Positions 50,564 through 60,831 of a stretch of DNA of 64,000 bases are shown here, piece after piece. Made by a program: the position numbers and the translations under genes. The notes beneath the pieces are model-generated. The model was given only the letters and a program-made list of their open reading frames with translations, was not told the origin of the DNA and did not search any database. Position 1 is the stretch's first letter; each line of letters opens with the position of its first letter. Source of the stretch: Escherichia phage vB_EcoM-172859UKE1. Location: the sequence record MZ234025.1. One strand, given 5' to 3'.

Positions 50564-50594
50564 GTTTACATAAGGATGATGGTGTGTTACTATC
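50564..50594 (+). promoter_or_regulatory. T4-type early promoter cassette with inverted repeat (GATGAT/ATCATC)
   Basis: AAAACAGTTTACA -35 region, -10 GTTACTAT. Confidence 0.6.
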
Positions 50595-52421: not shown

Positions 52422-52496
52422 GGCCCTGTAGCTCAATGGGAGAGCTGTCAGCTCATAACTGATAGGTAGCTGGATCGAAACCAGCCAGGGTCACCA
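52422..52496 (+). tRNA. tRNA, anticodon CAU (Met, or Ile if C34 is modified), CCA encoded
   Basis: Manual cloverleaf: acceptor GGCCCTG/CAGGGTC, D-stem GCTC/GAGC, anticodon loop CTCATAA, T-stem GCTGG/CCAGC, 75 nt. Confidence 0.8.
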
Positions 52497-52499
52497 ATC

Positions 52500-52576
<77 letters not shown>

Positions 52577-54685: not shown

Positions 54686-54913
54686 ATGGCTAAAGTTAGT
54701 ATTGATGTCGTTGATTATGAATACACAGAAGAAGTTATTCGCAACCGCCACCCTGAAGTTCGTATCGATTCAGTCCAAGATTCCAAGTTCTGGACAACTG
54801 AGCTTAATCTGAGTGGTCCTTATGAAGCTGTTAAGAAGTTCATGGTTGAAGAATACTGCGAAGGCATGCACCCCGAAGACGCCAAGTTTTATGTCAATTT
54901 GATTAAAAAATAA
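54686..54913 (+). CDS. hypothetical small protein (75 aa)
   Basis: ATG with GAGGAAAA SD. Confidence 0.5.
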   Translation: MAKVSIDVVDYEYTEEVIRNRHPEVRIDSVQDSKFWTTELNLSGPYEAVKKFMVEEYCEGMHPEDAKFYVNLIKK

Positions 54914-54942
54914 TTTACAAACTCTTGAGAGCAGAGTATAAT
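54913..54942 (+). promoter_or_regulatory. early promoter (ATTTAC-N18-TATAAT) with inverted repeat GAGAGC/GCTCTC around -10
   Basis: Read directly. Confidence 0.55.
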
Positions 54943-54983
54943 GCTCTCGTTGGATAATAAACCACCAATTGAAAGGTAATAAT

Positions 54984-55577
54984 ATGAACACACTGAAGAA
55001 ACTTGTTGAATTCATCCGCACTAAACTTGGTACTGCTATGGCTAAAAATCTGACTGTCGAAGAACAGTATAACGCAGCTGCAGATAAGTTGATTACCCAA
55101 ATCAAAGAACTAAAAACGGCTTCTGTTAAATCTATTAATGAAGAAAAACGTATTCGCGAACTTGTTAATGAAAAGAACAAACAAGCCGCTTCTAAGGAAC
55201 GTGAAATTCGTAAGCTCTTGGCTGAAGGACAAGATGTTACCATGCATGCTAAGCTTGGTCTTCTGTATCGTCGAACTGCCGAACAACTTAATACAAAAGC
55301 TGACGGGTATGCCGCTATGCGAATTGAAATTGCTCGTAAGGTGGTTGAACTTGATGATGCTCGTCAGAATCTGGCAATCAAACTCGAATACATTCGTGAA
55401 ACTCGAGCAGCCAACGCCCTTGGTATCTCTACGGCTGATGATGTAATTGAAATCGCTGCACTGACTAAGGTTGATATCGAAGACACTCTGACTCGTGTTG
55501 AAACGTTCAATGGCACTCCAGCCGGCGTCGAAACCACTTCTGCTGATGTACAAGAATATATTAACTCTTTGAAATAA
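54984..55577 (+). CDS. coiled-coil protein (197 aa), first gene of an early operon of unknowns
   Basis: ATG 54984 with GAAAGG SD; Lys/Glu/Ala-rich heptad-like composition. Confidence 0.55.
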
Positions 55578-55586
55578 AATAATACG

Positions 55587-55608
55587 GAGGACTCCGGTCC
55601 TCCTTTTG
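55587..55608 (+). terminator. hairpin (GGAGGAC-TCCG-GTCCTCC) + TTTT, probably an attenuating terminator
   Basis: Perfect 7-bp stem followed by short T-run; next gene starts 19 nt later. Confidence 0.45.
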
Positions 55609-55626
55609 GATAATAAAGGAGTTAAC

Positions 55627-56229
55627 ATGCGAAACCAAAATAATGATATTGACTCAATGTTCGAAGAGTTCCGAGATAAGGTAAATCCACCTACGTCTTT
55701 AGTTGATTCATTACGATATGTTGCAACCGGACGTAAATGGTACTGGTCGTCTTCTTATGAGACTACTGAGAAAACGGCTAGCCATAGCAGAAAATCTTTA
55801 TTAGCCCCAGGTATTATGATTCATGATATCGGAGCTATTGCTAAACTAGTTGCAGACCATGATATTAGATTCACTGATTTCGTTGCTCCTACATGGTCTG
55901 TTTGTTGTTTAAACACTGAATTGGAATATATCAGCGAACGCTCTGAAGATTATTATGGTTTTAGAGATAAGCTTCTGAGGTCTAATATGTTTTATATCGA
56001 TACAGAAGTTCTAGTCGATAATAAAAAATATTACTTTACGTTAATCATCGATTCTGAAACTATGTATGAAGGCAAGCCTTTGCTTAAAAGAGTTGATGCT
56101 TTAAGTGCTATTGATGCGCTTTATGAAACTATGGTTGTTAGTCCTAATTTCACTAACAATTTAATCCTTGAGCAATTTATTATGGAATGTAGAGAATATG
56201 TCAAAGCCAACCCTGTACATGCCAATTAA
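55627..56229 (+). CDS. hypothetical protein (200 aa) with junction motif FIMECR near the C-terminus
   Basis: ATG 55627 with AAAGGAG SD. Confidence 0.55.
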   Translation: MRNQNNDIDSMFEEFRDKVNPPTSLVDSLRYVATGRKWYWSSSYETTEKTASHSRKSLLAPGIMIHDIGAIAKLVADHDIRFTDFVAPTWSVCCLNTELEYISERSEDYYGFRDKLLRSNMFYIDTEVLVDNKKYYFTLIIDSETMYEGKPLLKRVDALSAIDALYETMVVSPNFTNNLILEQFIMECREYVKANPVHAN

Positions 56230-56593
56230 GCCCTGGGCGTATGAATACAAGCGTAAATTAATCCCAAACGAAGTACTATTTGGCCCTATTTTAGCTTTAG
56301 CATTTTTAATCTTTATGATTGTAGGAGCTGTTTTAGATTCTAGTGAAGTTATATCGTCTGATGCAGTGTTTTTACTTATTATAGCCGGGTCGTTTATTGT
56401 GCCATTTTTATTAATGCCTATTAACTGGGTGGGATATTGGTACCAAGGCCGTCATCACAGAGCTCGAGTTCGTGAATGGAAAGTTCAGTGCGCAAAAGCC
56501 AAAGCTCAGTATGATGAAGCTGTTAAAAAGTATGAATATGAAGAAGCTATGGAATTCGTTAAGGAAATAAGATGCAAAAGCCTCAACTCTTAA
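56198..56593 (+). CDS. small 2-TM membrane protein (131 aa), C-terminal ..EFVKEIRCK..
   Basis: ATG 56198 (track starts at TTG 56168); two hydrophobic helices; overlaps upstream gene by 32 nt. Confidence 0.5.
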   Translation: MSKPTLYMPIKPWAYEYKRKLIPNEVLFGPILALAFLIFMIVGAVLDSSEVISSDAVFLLIIAGSFIVPFLLMPINWVGYWYQGRHHRARVREWKVQCAKAKAQYDEAVKKYEYEEAMEFVKEIRCKSLNS

Positions 56594-56931
56594 CCGTATG
56601 GCCTTCTCTTGGTGAGAACATTCTAATTTTTATTATGAGTATTGGCATGGGATTTGCCTTTGGATTAGTTGGATTTCTTATTGACGGCGTTGTGTTAGGA
56701 TTTATAGGGAACACTGGTGGATTCACAGACCAATGGCAGGACTTACGATATACTCAAGCCTTTGCATCAATCGCATCCTTTTGTACAGTAGTCTATTTTT
56801 ACTACGATTTTATAAACCATAACAAGAAAAATAAAAAGGTTTACGCTTCTCAAATGATTAGTTATAATGAACTCCTAGCTAGACGTGAAAATGAAACAAT
56901 CGAAAACTTTATTAAGGAATGTAGAAAATGA
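56572..56931 (+). CDS. small multi-TM membrane protein (119 aa), C-terminal ..ENFIKECRK
   Basis: ATG directly after the upstream junction motif. Confidence 0.5.
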   Translation: MQKPQLLTVWPSLGENILIFIMSIGMGFAFGLVGFLIDGVVLGFIGNTGGFTDQWQDLRYTQAFASIASFCTVVYFYYDFINHNKKNKKVYASQMISYNELLARRENETIENFIKECRK

Positions 56932-57233
56932 GTAAGATTATTGAAATTAAAGTACCAGAGTTTAATGATGCCAAATCCGCTTCAGATGCAATTTATAAAC
57001 TTCTGAATCAAGCTGAACGTATCGAAGAAGAAGCAACAAAGATCGCAGACCAATATGCCGTATCATTTTCTGTAGGTGATTATGGTAGCGGTCGTACTTA
57101 TTATCCTAAGGGTGAAATCGTATCCCAGTGGATGAAAGATGAAATTGAAAATAATGGTGGCGATGTTAAGCGTGAAGGTAATGGTTACGTTATTACTGAA
57201 GGTGCTTGGGTTTCGTCTTCTGCGTTGTGCTAA
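56928..57233 (+). CDS. paralog A of tandem family ending GAWVSSSALC (101 aa)
   Basis: ATGA-coupled; shares C-terminal G-x-W-V-x-S-S-x-x-C with the next two genes. Confidence 0.55.
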   Translation: MSKIIEIKVPEFNDAKSASDAIYKLLNQAERIEEEATKIADQYAVSFSVGDYGSGRTYYPKGEIVSQWMKDEIENNGGDVKREGNGYVITEGAWVSSSALC

Positions 57234-57242
57234 GGAATCATT

Positions 57243-57515
57243 ATGTCTAAAGAACAAACCGAACTGGCTGAAGCTGTAGCAAAAATCTATGCAGCTATTG
57301 AGGCTGCCAAAGAAATTGCTGATAAACAAAACACAACATTCGACTTGTATCCAGCTTATGGTATGGGTGGAACCTATCATTCACCCGGACATCTTAAAGC
57401 CGATCTTGAACGTTGTACAAAAAACGGTTATGCTGAATGGGCTGATGTTTATCAATACGACTACAACCTGAGCCTTGAAGATGGTGGTTGGGTTGCATCT
57501 TCACACACTTGCTAA
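57243..57515 (+). CDS. paralog B of tandem family ending GGWVASSHTC (90 aa)
   Basis: SD TAAGGAA; conserved junction TGC-TAA-GGAA. Confidence 0.55.
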   Translation: MSKEQTELAEAVAKIYAAIEAAKEIADKQNTTFDLYPAYGMGGTYHSPGHLKADLERCTKNGYAEWADVYQYDYNLSLEDGGWVASSHTC

Positions 57516-57524
57516 GGAAACCAT

Positions 57525-57722
57525 ATGTCTCGTGAATTAGATTGTGCTGTACGTACCGCGGTAGCTGCTCTAGAAAACCTGTTCCAAATTGCAACAGAAG
57601 AACGCGAAGAAGTTACATTATGGATTGAAGATAACGCAGGTCTGAATCTCCAGGACGCGATCTCATTATCTAATAATAGCATTACTGTTCAAGGCTGGGT
57701 ATCGTCTAGTTATTCTTGCTAA
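57525..57722 (+). CDS. paralog C of tandem family ending QGWVSSSYSC (65 aa)
   Basis: SD AAGGAAA; conserved junction TGC-TAA-GGAA. Confidence 0.55.
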   Translation: MSRELDCAVRTAVAALENLFQIATEEREEVTLWIEDNAGLNLQDAISLSNNSITVQGWVSSSYSC

Positions 57723-58052: not shown

Positions 58053-59009
58053 ATGATGTTAGTTATTGGTTCTCGTGCACTTCACTATCATGGTCTTATT
58101 GATTCTAGCGCTATCAAAAATAGTGATTGGGACTTTATTGCGGACCAAGGTTCTTGGAATGCATTCAAAAATCAAATGATGGGTGTATATGTTCACCAAG
58201 ATAACCCTGATGTCCAAGTTTTCAAATGCTTCCATAATGGACGCGAAACTCATTTTGAAGCATATATTGTTCCGGCGATCACTAATGTCCGTGAATTAGT
58301 CGGTGAACTCACTCCTGAAGATTTCACGTCTTCTTATGACCTTTTAAAATACGCCAAGAAAAATTTGACTAAAGACCGTTTGACCGGGTTTTACTGGGCA
58401 ACTCCTGAGATATGTCTTGCAATTAAAATGTCTCATCGTTTCAAGAAAAATAATCCATTCTTTTTAAAGACTATGAACCATATTCAGTATCTTCGCGGTA
58501 AAGGTGTTACACTGAACGATGAACTTACTGAAATTATGCTGAAACGCCAGAAAGAAACTTTGAACTATGCTCACCCGGTTCTTGACACTTCTAAAAGTGC
58601 GTTCTTTAAAGATGACATCTATACATATGACCATGATACTATTCATGAAGCCATTGCACTAACTGACCAGCCTGCTTATAAGTTTTATATGAAAGAAGGC
58701 TCAGAAGTTATGACATCACGCGAGAAGTTCGAATCATTACCAGAAATGGTTAAATTAGCCGGTGTATATGAAGAAGCTTGTGTATTAGCTCTTGAACGTT
58801 CACAGATTCCTAACGACTTTAAAATCCATCCGAGTGATAGTTTTATGATGGCCCTTGAAAAGGTCTGTACATCAATCACATCAGGATGGTTCCGTGAGTT
58901 CGCTTGGGAAAATTATAGCAAAGTAGTAAGTATGTACCAAAGCTTAGGACATGACGATTACGTCAAGCGTTTCAAACAAAACTTTCATATGGTAAAACCT
59001 TTCAAATAA
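58053..59009 (+). CDS. hypothetical 318-aa protein; N-terminus has a GS...DxD pattern weakly reminiscent of Pol-beta-type nucleotidyltransferases
   Basis: ATG with GAGGAAAA SD; VIGSRALHYHGLIDSSAIKNSDWDFIAD; functional call is inference only. Confidence 0.55.
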   Translation: MMLVIGSRALHYHGLIDSSAIKNSDWDFIADQGSWNAFKNQMMGVYVHQDNPDVQVFKCFHNGRETHFEAYIVPAITNVRELVGELTPEDFTSSYDLLKYAKKNLTKDRLTGFYWATPEICLAIKMSHRFKKNNPFFLKTMNHIQYLRGKGVTLNDELTEIMLKRQKETLNYAHPVLDTSKSAFFKDDIYTYDHDTIHEAIALTDQPAYKFYMKEGSEVMTSREKFESLPEMVKLAGVYEEACVLALERSQIPNDFKIHPSDSFMMALEKVCTSITSGWFREFAWENYSKVVSMYQSLGHDDYVKRFKQNFHMVKPFK

Positions 59010-59346: not shown

Positions 59347-59652
59347 ATGAAATTAACAGAAACCAACCGAATCGGTCTTTTTACAATATTTGCATCGCTT
59401 TTTTACGCAGCTCTTTCTGTTGCAGTATTACAAAAGGCTTACGATATGGATGGTGTTCCTGGTTGTATATTTTTATCACCGTTTTTATTATTCGTCGGAG
59501 CTTTGATATTATATGCCACGTCCGGTTTAGACCATAATGTCTGGGTCAATTATAAACGTAAATTGTCCGAAGAAGAACACGCAGAAGCTCGTAAAAAAGC
59601 TATTGAATCTACCAATCTAGAAAATTTCATTAAAGAATGTCGAGGAAAATAA
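59347..59652 (+). CDS. small 2-TM membrane protein (101 aa), C-terminal ..ENFIKECRGK
   Basis: SD GAGGAG; hydrophobic helices. Confidence 0.55.
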   Translation: MKLTETNRIGLFTIFASLFYAALSVAVLQKAYDMDGVPGCIFLSPFLLFVGALILYATSGLDHNVWVNYKRKLSEEEHAEARKKAIESTNLENFIKECRGK

Positions 59653-59653
59653 T

Positions 59654-60340
59654 ATGAATAGTTCTAAAGTGTTTAATAGTCAAGCTCGTGCAGTAGGTGG
59701 TTTTGCCGGCGGTATTTCTAATGATAAAATCAAGAACGAGCCTATGTTCTTCAACTGTAGTTTAGAATTTGCTTATAATAACGGCGGTCCTATTACTCGC
59801 TCTTTCATTATGAACTTGCCGGATGATTGGAACACCGACCAGGTTGTATTTGATTCACGAGTCCACATGCTGATGCCTGGTTGGTATCCTGCAATCCCAG
59901 GCTATCACCATGATGACGTACCACGCCCAGATATTCCAGTTGGTCAACACTTTATTACTGCAGGACAACCTGACTATGACAACCCTCGTTACCATTCTGA
60001 ACATATTCTTGGTCTTGTTAACGCTGATGTGTGTCCTACTCATTTTGCAACAGGAACTGCGGAGTTCAGTCAGATTCCTTATGGCGAACTTATCTATCGC
60101 CAGTGGCACAAAGAAGTCCTCGAAAAAATTGAAAAAGGTGAACTAGAGAAATGGGAAGCTCCAGATCGTACTCTTCTTCAGTTTGATTGGCAAACATGGC
60201 ACACTGGTTCTCGTGCAATTAGTAACGGATGGCGTTGGTTCGGACGTGTATCTCGTAATACAGACCGAGTTAAAAAGATTACCAATGAAATTCGTGTCAA
60301 TGCTCAAGTTTATCTGGAATTCCCTATGGAAGGCTGGTAA
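59654..60340 (+). CDS. hypothetical protein (228 aa), His/Asp-rich
   Basis: Starts 1 nt after previous stop, directly after the junction motif. Confidence 0.55.
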   Translation: MNSSKVFNSQARAVGGFAGGISNDKIKNEPMFFNCSLEFAYNNGGPITRSFIMNLPDDWNTDQVVFDSRVHMLMPGWYPAIPGYHHDDVPRPDIPVGQHFITAGQPDYDNPRYHSEHILGLVNADVCPTHFATGTAEFSQIPYGELIYRQWHKEVLEKIEKGELEKWEAPDRTLLQFDWQTWHTGSRAISNGWRWFGRVSRNTDRVKKITNEIRVNAQVYLEFPMEGW

Positions 60341-60831
60341 TGATACATAAAATTCACTGGGCAAACATGGACGATGACGACGAAGGTACTTCATATTATT
60401 CTATAGATTGGACAGGATGTCCATCCTACTTAGTGAAACGTCATTGTCAAGCATTTAAAATCGACCAGCCAGCAGGTATTATTGTGAACAGATACATTAA
60501 CGGATATCAACCTATCGATGAAGTAATACGAACAACTCAAGCTGAGCTTGAAAAGTTTTTCAATAAGTGCCAATGGATAACAGGATGGATTATATTTGTA
60601 CCGTCAGTGTGGTTTTTTAGTACTAAGGTGAGTTCTTTCGGTTTTGTTGATATTATTGCTATCTTATTAGCATCTAGTATCATAAGTGTTGTTGGTGGCA
60701 TCATTGGCGGCGGTACCGCCGCCATCATTATTAATCTTATTAAAAGTAGTTTACAAGAACATAAAGACAAGATAAAAGCCAAGAATAATGAAGTTGAACG
60801 TTTTATTACCGAATGCAGGAATTTGAGATGA
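60340..60831 (+). CDS. membrane protein (163 aa): soluble N-domain ending ..LEKFFNKCQ fused to TM segment, C-terminal ..ERFITECRNLR
   Basis: TAATG-coupled; internal and terminal copies of the junction motif. Confidence 0.55.
   Translation: MIHKIHWANMDDDDEGTSYYSIDWTGCPSYLVKRHCQAFKIDQPAGIIVNRYINGYQPIDEVIRTTQAELEKFFNKCQWITGWIIFVPSVWFFSTKVSSFGFVDIIAILLASSIISVVGGIIGGGTAAIIINLIKSSLQEHKDKIKAKNNEVERFITECRNLR

Follow-up and report, generated by a model that had tools for sequence, protein, structure and literature searches.

The gene e.6, which opens a block of seven genes in a 64,000-nucleotide stretch of Escherichia phage vB_EcoM-172859UKE1 (record MZ234025.1; this whole stretch is called the window below, and positions refer to it), very probably encodes a divergent homolog of the PspA/Vipp1(IM30) proteins of the ESCRT-III superfamily, a PspA-type effector that is viral, has diverged strongly and may come with partners of its own. 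The window belongs to an RB69-group (Mosigvirus) T4-like phage, with 97–98% identity to Mosigvirus phages in the 3.5 kb around the block. In the RB69 record the block genes are named e.6, e.5, e.4, e.3, ORF139c/138c, ORF137c and ORF136c, all of them hypothetical; we refer to the window counterparts of the last three as W1, W2 and W3, and compare the block with about 40 related loci (labeled L0xx, with L001 being the RB69 reference record). A first-pass annotation of the window had placed seven open reading frames (ORFs) here at the same starts, which match the annotated RB69 genes, and had suggested that they form an early accessory module for host takeover or anti-defense in which none has an assignable function. 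The latter statement fails for e.6, and the function that can be assigned to it points, on sequence grounds, to the host inner membrane.

Probable relationship of e.6 to the PspA/Vipp1 family

The assignment was reached with a deep profile, A2, an alignment of 36 proteins of the e.6 family with identities as low as 17%. Compared with the PDB in HMMER, A2 returned Vipp1 or PspA as hits 1–7 and 9 (best Vipp1 E=5.3e-5), the alignment to Vipp1 running from residues 1–146 to 1–147 with two tiny gaps, and the first unrelated coiled coil appeared at 1e-3 over 71 residues. Against a target built from E. coli PspA (a sequence identical to 4whe over residues 1–144) and Synechocystis Vipp1, hhalign gave a probability of 90.9% (E=1e-6, score 46.8 over 136 columns), while reversed sequences scored 17.7 with a probability of 0.8% and 40 heptad-block shuffles scored 13.3±1.9. 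This signal grows steadily with profile depth and is always in register; it stands at 85.5% when the three most PspA-like members are left out and at 93.4% for the divergent half alone, against 5–17% for close relatives alone. PspA_IM30 is also the commonest Pfam match among the 36 members of A2. The proteins P0073 (39.0 bits) and P0067 (35.1 bits) exceed the gathering threshold of PF04012 (33.9 bits), with residues 6–146 on model positions 2–143, and match the e.6 profile over their whole length at 6e-17 and 3e-20, respectively.

The predicted structure of e.6 is that of an all-helical coiled coil, which agrees with the first-pass description, and consists of an N-terminal helix (residues 2–22), a hairpin (25–80 / 86–145) and a short C-terminal helical region. 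In this model a long alpha1 / alpha2-3 hairpin precedes shorter helices, the arrangement typical of ESCRT-III proteins. The N-terminal helix is cationic, with a net charge of +3 to +5 across the family, and is predicted to be amphipathic; its hydrophobic moment of 0.43 compares with 0.42 for PspA and 0.57 for Vipp1 (shuffle p=0.08, in a part of the model that is of low confidence). Members of the PspA/Vipp1/LiaH family have in common with e.6 the long hairpin, a gene position beside small membrane-protein genes and, as predicted for e.6, an amphipathic N-terminal helix, and the two can be aligned over roughly the first 145 residues; they differ from the phage-encoded protein in length (222–267 versus 197 amino acids) and in the C-terminal third.

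Several results weigh against the assignment. Neither the e.6 of the window nor any of its 26 close relatives has a PF04012 match, and tests of e.6 as a single sequence or shallow profile against the PDB and PspA were not significant (E of about 1–3, hhalign 5–17%). The same holds for the reciprocal comparison of a two-sequence PspA profile with all ORFs of the window, and the C-terminal third of e.6 differs from alpha4/alpha5 of PspA. As the window protein alone falls below significance, the assignment is transitive and runs through divergent family members. We nevertheless regard the steps that link the window protein to its family, and this family to PspA_IM30, as sound, and homology with PspA/IM30 remains highly probable.

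An exhaustive search with hidden Markov models among 1.84 billion representatives returned 45 e.6 clusters, nearly all of about 200 amino acids and aligned over their full length, and the family is therefore compact. It is also widespread: 1,109 of the 50,697 phage records examined carry one copy each, full-length in 1,107 of them, and all copies are labeled either hypothetical or, spuriously, “host specificity protein.”

The likeness to PspA could also be put to another use, with e.6 as a mimic of the host protein that binds PspF or PspB/C and so silences or hijacks the phage-shock response, and does not act on the membrane. The region of PspA from alpha0 to alpha3 carries both the membrane and the PspF contacts, and it is this part (residues 1–140) that aligns with e.6; such a mimic would also fit a phage that itself encodes no PspF, PspB or PspC. 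However, an identity of about 10% to E. coli PspA is low for the mimic of a specific interface, the e.6 family is found in phages of diverse hosts, and the membrane proteins encoded beside e.6, which carry the tag described below, suggest that the phage brings its own partners. We regard manipulation of the host Psp response as improbable.

A C-terminal tag on the neighbors of e.6

The proteins e.5, e.4 and e.3, together with e.2 and ORF133 outside the block, have in common a C-terminal peptide tag, F[IV]xxC[RK], which in distant lineages takes the form [FI][IV]xx[A/C]R. The C-terminal ends read ...EQFIMECREY... in e.5 and ...ENFIKECRK in e.3, with a degenerate version, ...EFVKEIRCK, in e.4. 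Among the 196 six-frame ORFs of at least 40 amino acids in the window, the pattern [FWIL][IVL]xxC[RK] matches four, namely e.5, e.3, ORF133 and e.2; all of these tags read F-I-x-E-C-R, stand 1–11 residues from the C-terminus and fall within 55.6–60.8 kb. In the related loci the tag was found on 107 distinct ORF ends, always at most 24 residues from the stop. Its codons are mixed (TGT 57 / TGC 50, TTT 71 / TTC 36, six Arg/Lys codons), which indicates that it is selected as a peptide; a DNA-level element such as a Shine-Dalgarno sequence or recombination box was rejected on account of the mixed synonymous codons and the variable middle residues.

The tag bearers comprise the soluble e.5-like protein and small proteins with two transmembrane (TM) segments and cytoplasmic tails according to the positive-inside rule. 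The 200-residue protein that the first-pass annotation had called soluble is e.5, and its two small membrane proteins are e.4 and e.3, each predicted to have two TM segments with both termini in the cytoplasm. For e.4, hydropathy and the positive-inside rule give an N-in/C-in topology with a cytoplasmic tail of 56 amino acids, and a full-length match to phrog_2604 backs its start at 56198. The family alignment shows e.5 to be a real but very divergent family; a homolog search with e.5 gave only three near-identical proteins, its family profile found no relative among the solved structures of the PDB, and the e.5 cluster P0047 carries a precomputed Pfam tag, PF26876.

The order of e.6, tagged soluble protein and tagged TM proteins holds across genera, and so do the overlapping start and stop codons. 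In the window the overlaps measure 32 nucleotides for e.5/e.4 and 22 for e.4/e.3, and e.3 meets W1 in an ATGA. Even in L053, L054 and L055, where e.6 is only 21–32% identical, soluble and membrane-anchored proteins with a related tag, [IF][IVL]xxAR, come after e.6 (ILANARER, IVHRARLE, IIHQARQR, AIHEARQR and IIARAK are examples), and the RNA hairpin behind e.6 described in the next section is kept too. In T4 the genes e.6, e.5, e.4 and e.3 follow one another with similar overlaps, and e.2 comes directly after e.3.

Some further occurrences were recorded beside these. In L031 (6628–7927) two tandem e.5-like genes are both tagged and no tagged membrane protein follows. Proteins of 114–115 amino acids in L050 (11803–12147), L051 (764–1108) and L052 (4209–4556) contain ...FIKECRGLD... 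about 40 residues from the C-terminus, in fetched stretches that hold no e.6 homolog; either coincidence or a remote use of the tag peptide may account for this. A search of viral contigs with the ENFIKECR DNA pattern proved too narrow for following the co-occurrence of tag and e.6, as it returned Mosigvirus copies and unrelated internal matches. The soluble ORF132 (228 amino acids, 59654–60340) lies between the tagged ORF133 and e.2, and its homolog in L038 (7893–8579) sits among tagged membrane-protein genes.

Promoters and RNA elements

The first-pass annotation had read the block as a single, tightly coupled transcript from one early promoter. That promoter is present at the head of the block, a near-consensus sigma-70 promoter with the -10 box in the loop of a stem-loop (54927–54933 / 54942–48) and an expected transcription start at about 54949, and the relatives, too, have a promoter at this position ahead of e.6. 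Most loci have the stem-loop early type; L029, L030, L032–36 and L039 carry a MotA-box middle type (ATGCTTTA-N12-TATAAA). It is, however, not the sole promoter, since the 3' end of e.3 contains a second one of early type, which is preceded by A-rich sequence and stands some 60 nucleotides ahead of W1 (expected start at about 56875). This internal promoter is kept in Mosigvirus loci, and the homologous position in the Dhakavirus-like relatives L010–L018 holds a MotA-type middle promoter, ATGCTTTA-N12-TATAAT. It would serve W1–W3, so that the W genes could be transcribed on their own. Scanned over both strands of the window, a strict early-promoter pattern matches at four plus-strand sites (50919, 56839, 57727 and 62912) and nowhere on the minus strand. 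Sigma-70-like promoters of the kind that marks early units of the T4 type are found at 54914–54942 and 56839–56868, with early RNA recorded for the T4 orthologs e.3–e.6, and the downstream boundary of the block coincides, as proposed, with the stem-loop of the next early promoter.

The tight coupling likewise extends from e.5 through W1 and does not include e.6 and e.5, which are separated by a spacer of 49 nucleotides with a conserved GC hairpin. In the window this hairpin begins 8 nucleotides after the e.6 stop and has a weak T tract; in every related locus a hairpin lies 2–12 nucleotides past the stop, in 19 distinct stems that are all perfectly paired, with UNCG loops in 14 and GNRA loops in three. 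Because most of the relatives lack a U tract, a canonical intrinsic terminator was rejected, and we take it that the hairpin probably stabilizes the mRNA, directs its processing or works as a leaky terminator, and would in this way separate e.6 from the downstream genes. Together with the internal promoter, it predicts unequal expression across the block.

Hairpins with C(UUCG)G and GNRA tetraloops were reportedly described in T4 intercistronic regions by Tuerk et al. in 1988. The element behind e.6 likewise combines a perfect GC stem with a UNCG or GNRA loop, although the loop in the window is UCCG and not UUCG. The wider setting is the hyperplastic e-to-tRNA region, in which T4-type phages carry promoter-early stem-loop cassettes, as reportedly described by Arbiol, Comeau, Krisch and colleagues in 2010. 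The T4 e.2–e.6 genes of this region are direct orthologs, with the same order and overlaps from e.6 to e.3 and with -10 boxes inside stem-loops; the window differs in having three W genes and further ORFs between e.3 and e.2.

The 12-mer TTGGATAATAAA occurs at 54950–54961 and again at 55606–55617, directly after the promoter stem-loop and after the post-e.6 hairpin, and a GGATAAT-like box lies behind the e.6 hairpin in many relatives. These sequences could be a 5' untranslated region or processing signal.

A proposed Psp-like membrane module

We lean toward the view that e.6 and its tagged neighbors form a Psp-like membrane module of the phage, an ESCRT-III-type effector with tagged partners that would act early on the host inner membrane. 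With its cationic amphipathic N-terminal helix, e.6 would bind the cytoplasmic face of this membrane and, by analogy with PspA and Vipp1, might oligomerise there and stabilize or reshape it. The translationally coupled e.5, e.4 and e.3, along with e.2 and ORF133, could serve as interchangeable partners or anchors for one cytoplasmic target. The most economical candidate for this target would be e.6 itself, in parallel to the recruitment of PspA by PspB/PspC or of LiaH by LiaI. The e.6 gene has its own promoter and a conserved tetraloop hairpin at its 3' end, and the hairpin may give it an mRNA fate, and hence a dosage, different from that of its partners. By means of this module the phage would maintain the inner membrane, or remodel it, in the course of infection, a role dispensable in laboratory hosts.

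A parallel is offered by the psp (pspABC) and lia (liaIH) operons, in which a gene for a coiled-coil effector likewise stands with genes in the same direction for small inner-membrane proteins with cytoplasmic tails. They differ from the phage set in that e.4 and e.3 have no sequence likeness to PspB, PspC or LiaI, that no PspF-type regulator is present here, that one tagged protein of the phage set, e.5, is soluble, and that the number of partners varies from 0 to 4. To our knowledge, a C-terminal F[IV]xxCR tag has not been described for Psp systems.

Identity to the T4 orthologs amounts to 88% for e.6, 47% for e.5, 52% for e.4 and 35% for e.3, and this combination of an e.6 conserved to the degree of a core gene with fast-evolving partners fits a constant effector with variable interfaces. 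That the region is early and accessory, as the first-pass annotation had it, agrees with the data on T4, where e.3–e.6 are classed as early transcripts (PMC9697503, supplementary files 4 and 6) and their proteins are all detected, e.4 and e.5 early, e.6 in the middle period and e.3 late (PMC9697503). All four genes were non-essential in a transposon screen (bioRxiv 10.1101/2025.11.20.689424, supplementary file 7), in which e.6 tolerated insertions at 43/43 sites. Among the related loci, e.6 is frameshifted into two ORFs in L027 (5960–6552) and most of e.3 is missing in L005 (7598–7700), which fits the dispensability of these genes.

A number of points speak against such a module. In one screen comparison the T4 genes had no significant effect (bioRxiv 10.1101/2025.11.20.689424), e.5, e.4 and e.3 have no match to PspB, PspC or PspF in Pfam, NCBIfam or PHROG, and e.6 stands without tagged neighbors in the divergent locus L041. 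That e.6 binds the tagged proteins is purely our inference, and the target of the tag could equally be a host protein; specific docking of the tag onto e.6 is accordingly put forward as a tentative and rather doubtful part of the proposal.

The same genes could instead be a loose collection of unrelated ORFs of the hyperplastic region, brought together by modular shuffling and co-transcribed through the compactness of the genome. On that account e.6 would be PspA-like but act alone or with host partners, and e.5, e.4 and e.3 could, for example, belong to superinfection exclusion or lysis control, in which the small T4 membrane proteins Imm, Sp and RI act. The unequal identities to T4 are compatible with such an origin, as are the lack of W genes in T4, the variable gene numbers between relatives (0–4 membrane-protein genes and 0–5 W genes), the solitary e.6 of L041, the frameshift and the deletion just mentioned, the division of the block by hairpin and internal promoter, and the dissimilar timing of the T4 proteins. 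What a loose collection does not readily explain is that the order of e.6, tagged soluble protein and tagged TM proteins is kept down to 21–32% e.6 identity, that proteins otherwise unrelated carry one tag kept at the peptide level, which speaks for a partner in common, and that overlapping start and stop codons are maintained across genera. We consider it unlikely and favor, with reservation, the membrane module.

A more far-reaching version of the module would see e.6 and its rapidly diversifying, tag-docking adaptors as an ESCRT-III/PspA-type membrane-remodeling system of T4-like phages, which repairs or reshapes the host inner membrane, for instance against membrane-depolarising abortive-infection effectors or superinfection damage, and so constitutes a new class of counter-defense. 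This should be taken as a speculation that is more probably wrong than right, and by a good measure.

The genes of the block were already known as ORFs. New are the proposed placement of e.6 in the PspA/ESCRT-III superfamily, the tag shared by the C-termini of e.2–e.5 and ORF133, the tetraloop hairpin conserved behind e.6 and the internal promoter before the W genes. A search by gene name retrieved the expression and essentiality tables and no functional study. In the full-text literature searched, a single library and as such no proof of novelty, we found no paper that connects T4-like phages with PspA or Vipp1, and phage homologs go unmentioned in a broad survey of PSP evolution as well as in a recent review on the ESCRT-III proteins of bacteria and archaea. 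PspA bears the name “phage shock protein,” yet we found no report of a phage-encoded PspA, and e.6 sits in T4 itself, the best-studied phage. If the assignment is true, it would add a viral branch to the ESCRT-III/PspA superfamily and provide a concrete role for the long-standing T4 ORFans e.2 to e.6; the portable peptide tag may define a family of PspA adaptors, and the old question of how T-even phages keep the membrane of the infected cell energized until lysis would be touched as well.

The W paralogs and the extent of the block

The three paralogs that the first-pass annotation had recognized by a WVSS-C ending are related to one another: W1 and W2 match in blastp (E=1e-4) and hhalign (97.6%), W3 is joined through W2 (hhalign 79.5%, E=1.5e-5), and reversed controls reach at most 5%. 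The family (phrog_899 / phrog_4882) is marked by a helix at the N-terminus, a beta-sheet and an ending in W-x-S-S-x(0-3)-C, with Y58, W94, S97 and C101 invariant in alignment A3. The fetched loci contain 100 distinct members in five subfamilies, always in same-strand tandem arrays of 2–5, flanked by the last membrane-protein gene on one side and a DUF7277/DUF7275 gene on the other; in the window the gaps W1–W2 and W2–W3 are 9 nucleotides each. Homologs of W1 were found by tblastn in 394 phage records, and the e-to-tRNA interval of T4 has no W genes. The predicted fold of W1 is confident, yet no fold neighbor was found in the PDB, a BFVD search gave only uncharacterised phage proteins, and the family profile found nothing in the PDB. 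Judging from these comparisons, W1–W3 are a separate, phage-restricted family of small alpha/beta proteins that is evolutionarily separable from e.6–e.3. Leads on their role are the invariant terminal cysteine and the constant DUF7277/DUF7275 neighbor, ORF134 in the window, which accompanies the W arrays downstream in nearly all non-T4 relatives, even in L055 with its e.6 of 32% identity.

These findings bear on the proposal that all seven proteins make up one stoichiometric complex, expressed from a single early transcript and serving host takeover or the blocking of defenses. The head promoter and the close packing of the genes agree with it, the T4 orthologs are early and non-essential, tandem fast-evolving paralogs are typical of arms-race genes, and in several genera W1 and the membrane-protein gene ahead of it overlap at their start and stop codons. 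Against this, the promoter at 56839 and the post-e.6 hairpin predict unequal expression, T4 lacks the W genes although e.6–e.3 are present, copy numbers vary, and nothing ties the W proteins physically to e.6. Direct comparison of the seven proteins with Pfam, PHROGs, NCBIfam and PADLOC gave only PHROGs of unknown function and noise, and PADLOC returned no significant match and so no likeness to defense-system proteins. Nor is the block a single seven-gene unit, given the T4 arrangement and the occurrence of e.6 without the rest in L041. A seven-protein complex is hence most unlikely.

In one W subfamily (members end in ...DGSIWQPSSC; L010–L040, e.g., L020 8315–8545) the W-x-x-S-S-C unit is present twice, as an internal copy, DWLNSSCYGEE, and a C-terminal copy, which suggests the unit as a functional module. 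The RB69 record (L001 6329–6635) splits the W1 ortholog into ORF139c and ORF138c, apparently by a frameshift, and W1 is intact, with 101 amino acids, in the window and most relatives. By eye, the N-terminus of ORF134 (VIGSRAL...x17...DWDF) resembles the motif of pol-beta-type nucleotidyltransferases; a sequence search of the PDB with it found nothing.

Features of the block and its surroundings

Positions, strands and principal characteristics of the genes, promoters and RNA element discussed in the text (aa, amino acids; nt, nucleotides; MFE, minimum free energy).
Feature	Position	Strand	Characteristics
Head early promoter	54914..54948	+	TTTACA 54914–54919, 17-nt spacer, TATAAT 54937–54942; consensus scan 11/12
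e.6 (197 aa)	54984..55577	+	Probable divergent PspA/Vipp1(IM30)-family protein, ESCRT-III superfamily
Post-e.6 GC hairpin	55586..55603	+	GGAGGAC-UCCG-GUCCUCC; MFE -14.4 kcal/mol, z -2.5
e.5 (200 aa)	55627..56229	+	Soluble, fast-evolving; tag FIMECR 56176–56193; phrog_2607
e.4 (131 aa)	56198..56593	+	Predicted inner-membrane hairpin; TM 26–44, 57–75; degenerate tag FVKEIR 56555–56572
e.3 (119 aa)	56572..56931	+	Small membrane protein, cytoplasmic tail; tag FIKECR 56908–56925; phrog_2330
Internal early-type promoter	56839..56868	+	GTTTACG-N17-TATAAT, A-rich upstream region; scan 10/12
W1 (101 aa)	56928..57233	+	Small cytosolic alpha/beta protein (predicted); ends ...GAWVSSSALC; start overlaps e.3 stop (ATGA)
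W2 (90 aa)	57243..57515	+	W1 paralog; ends ...GGWVASSHTC; phrog_899
W3 (65 aa)	57525..57722	+	Short diverged paralog; ends ...QGWVSSSYSC; phrog_4882
Next early promoter with stem-loop	57728..57765	+	Downstream block boundary
ORF134 (318 aa)	58053..59009	+	DUF7277+DUF7275 (Pfam); outside block
ORF133 (101 aa)	59347..59652	+	Two-TM protein, outside block; tag FIKECR 59626–59643
e.2 (163 aa)	60340..60831	+	Membrane protein, outside block; tag FITECR 60802–60819

Beyond the block, early-type promoters on the plus strand stand at 50565, 50920, 54629, 54914, 57728, 59023, 59292 and 62316, most of them with the -10 box in a stem-loop, and cut the region of 50–63 kb into many short same-strand units. 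Two tRNA genes, also on the plus strand, lie upstream of the block at 52422–52493 and 52500–52573 and correspond to the RB69 tRNA-Met and tRNA-Arg.

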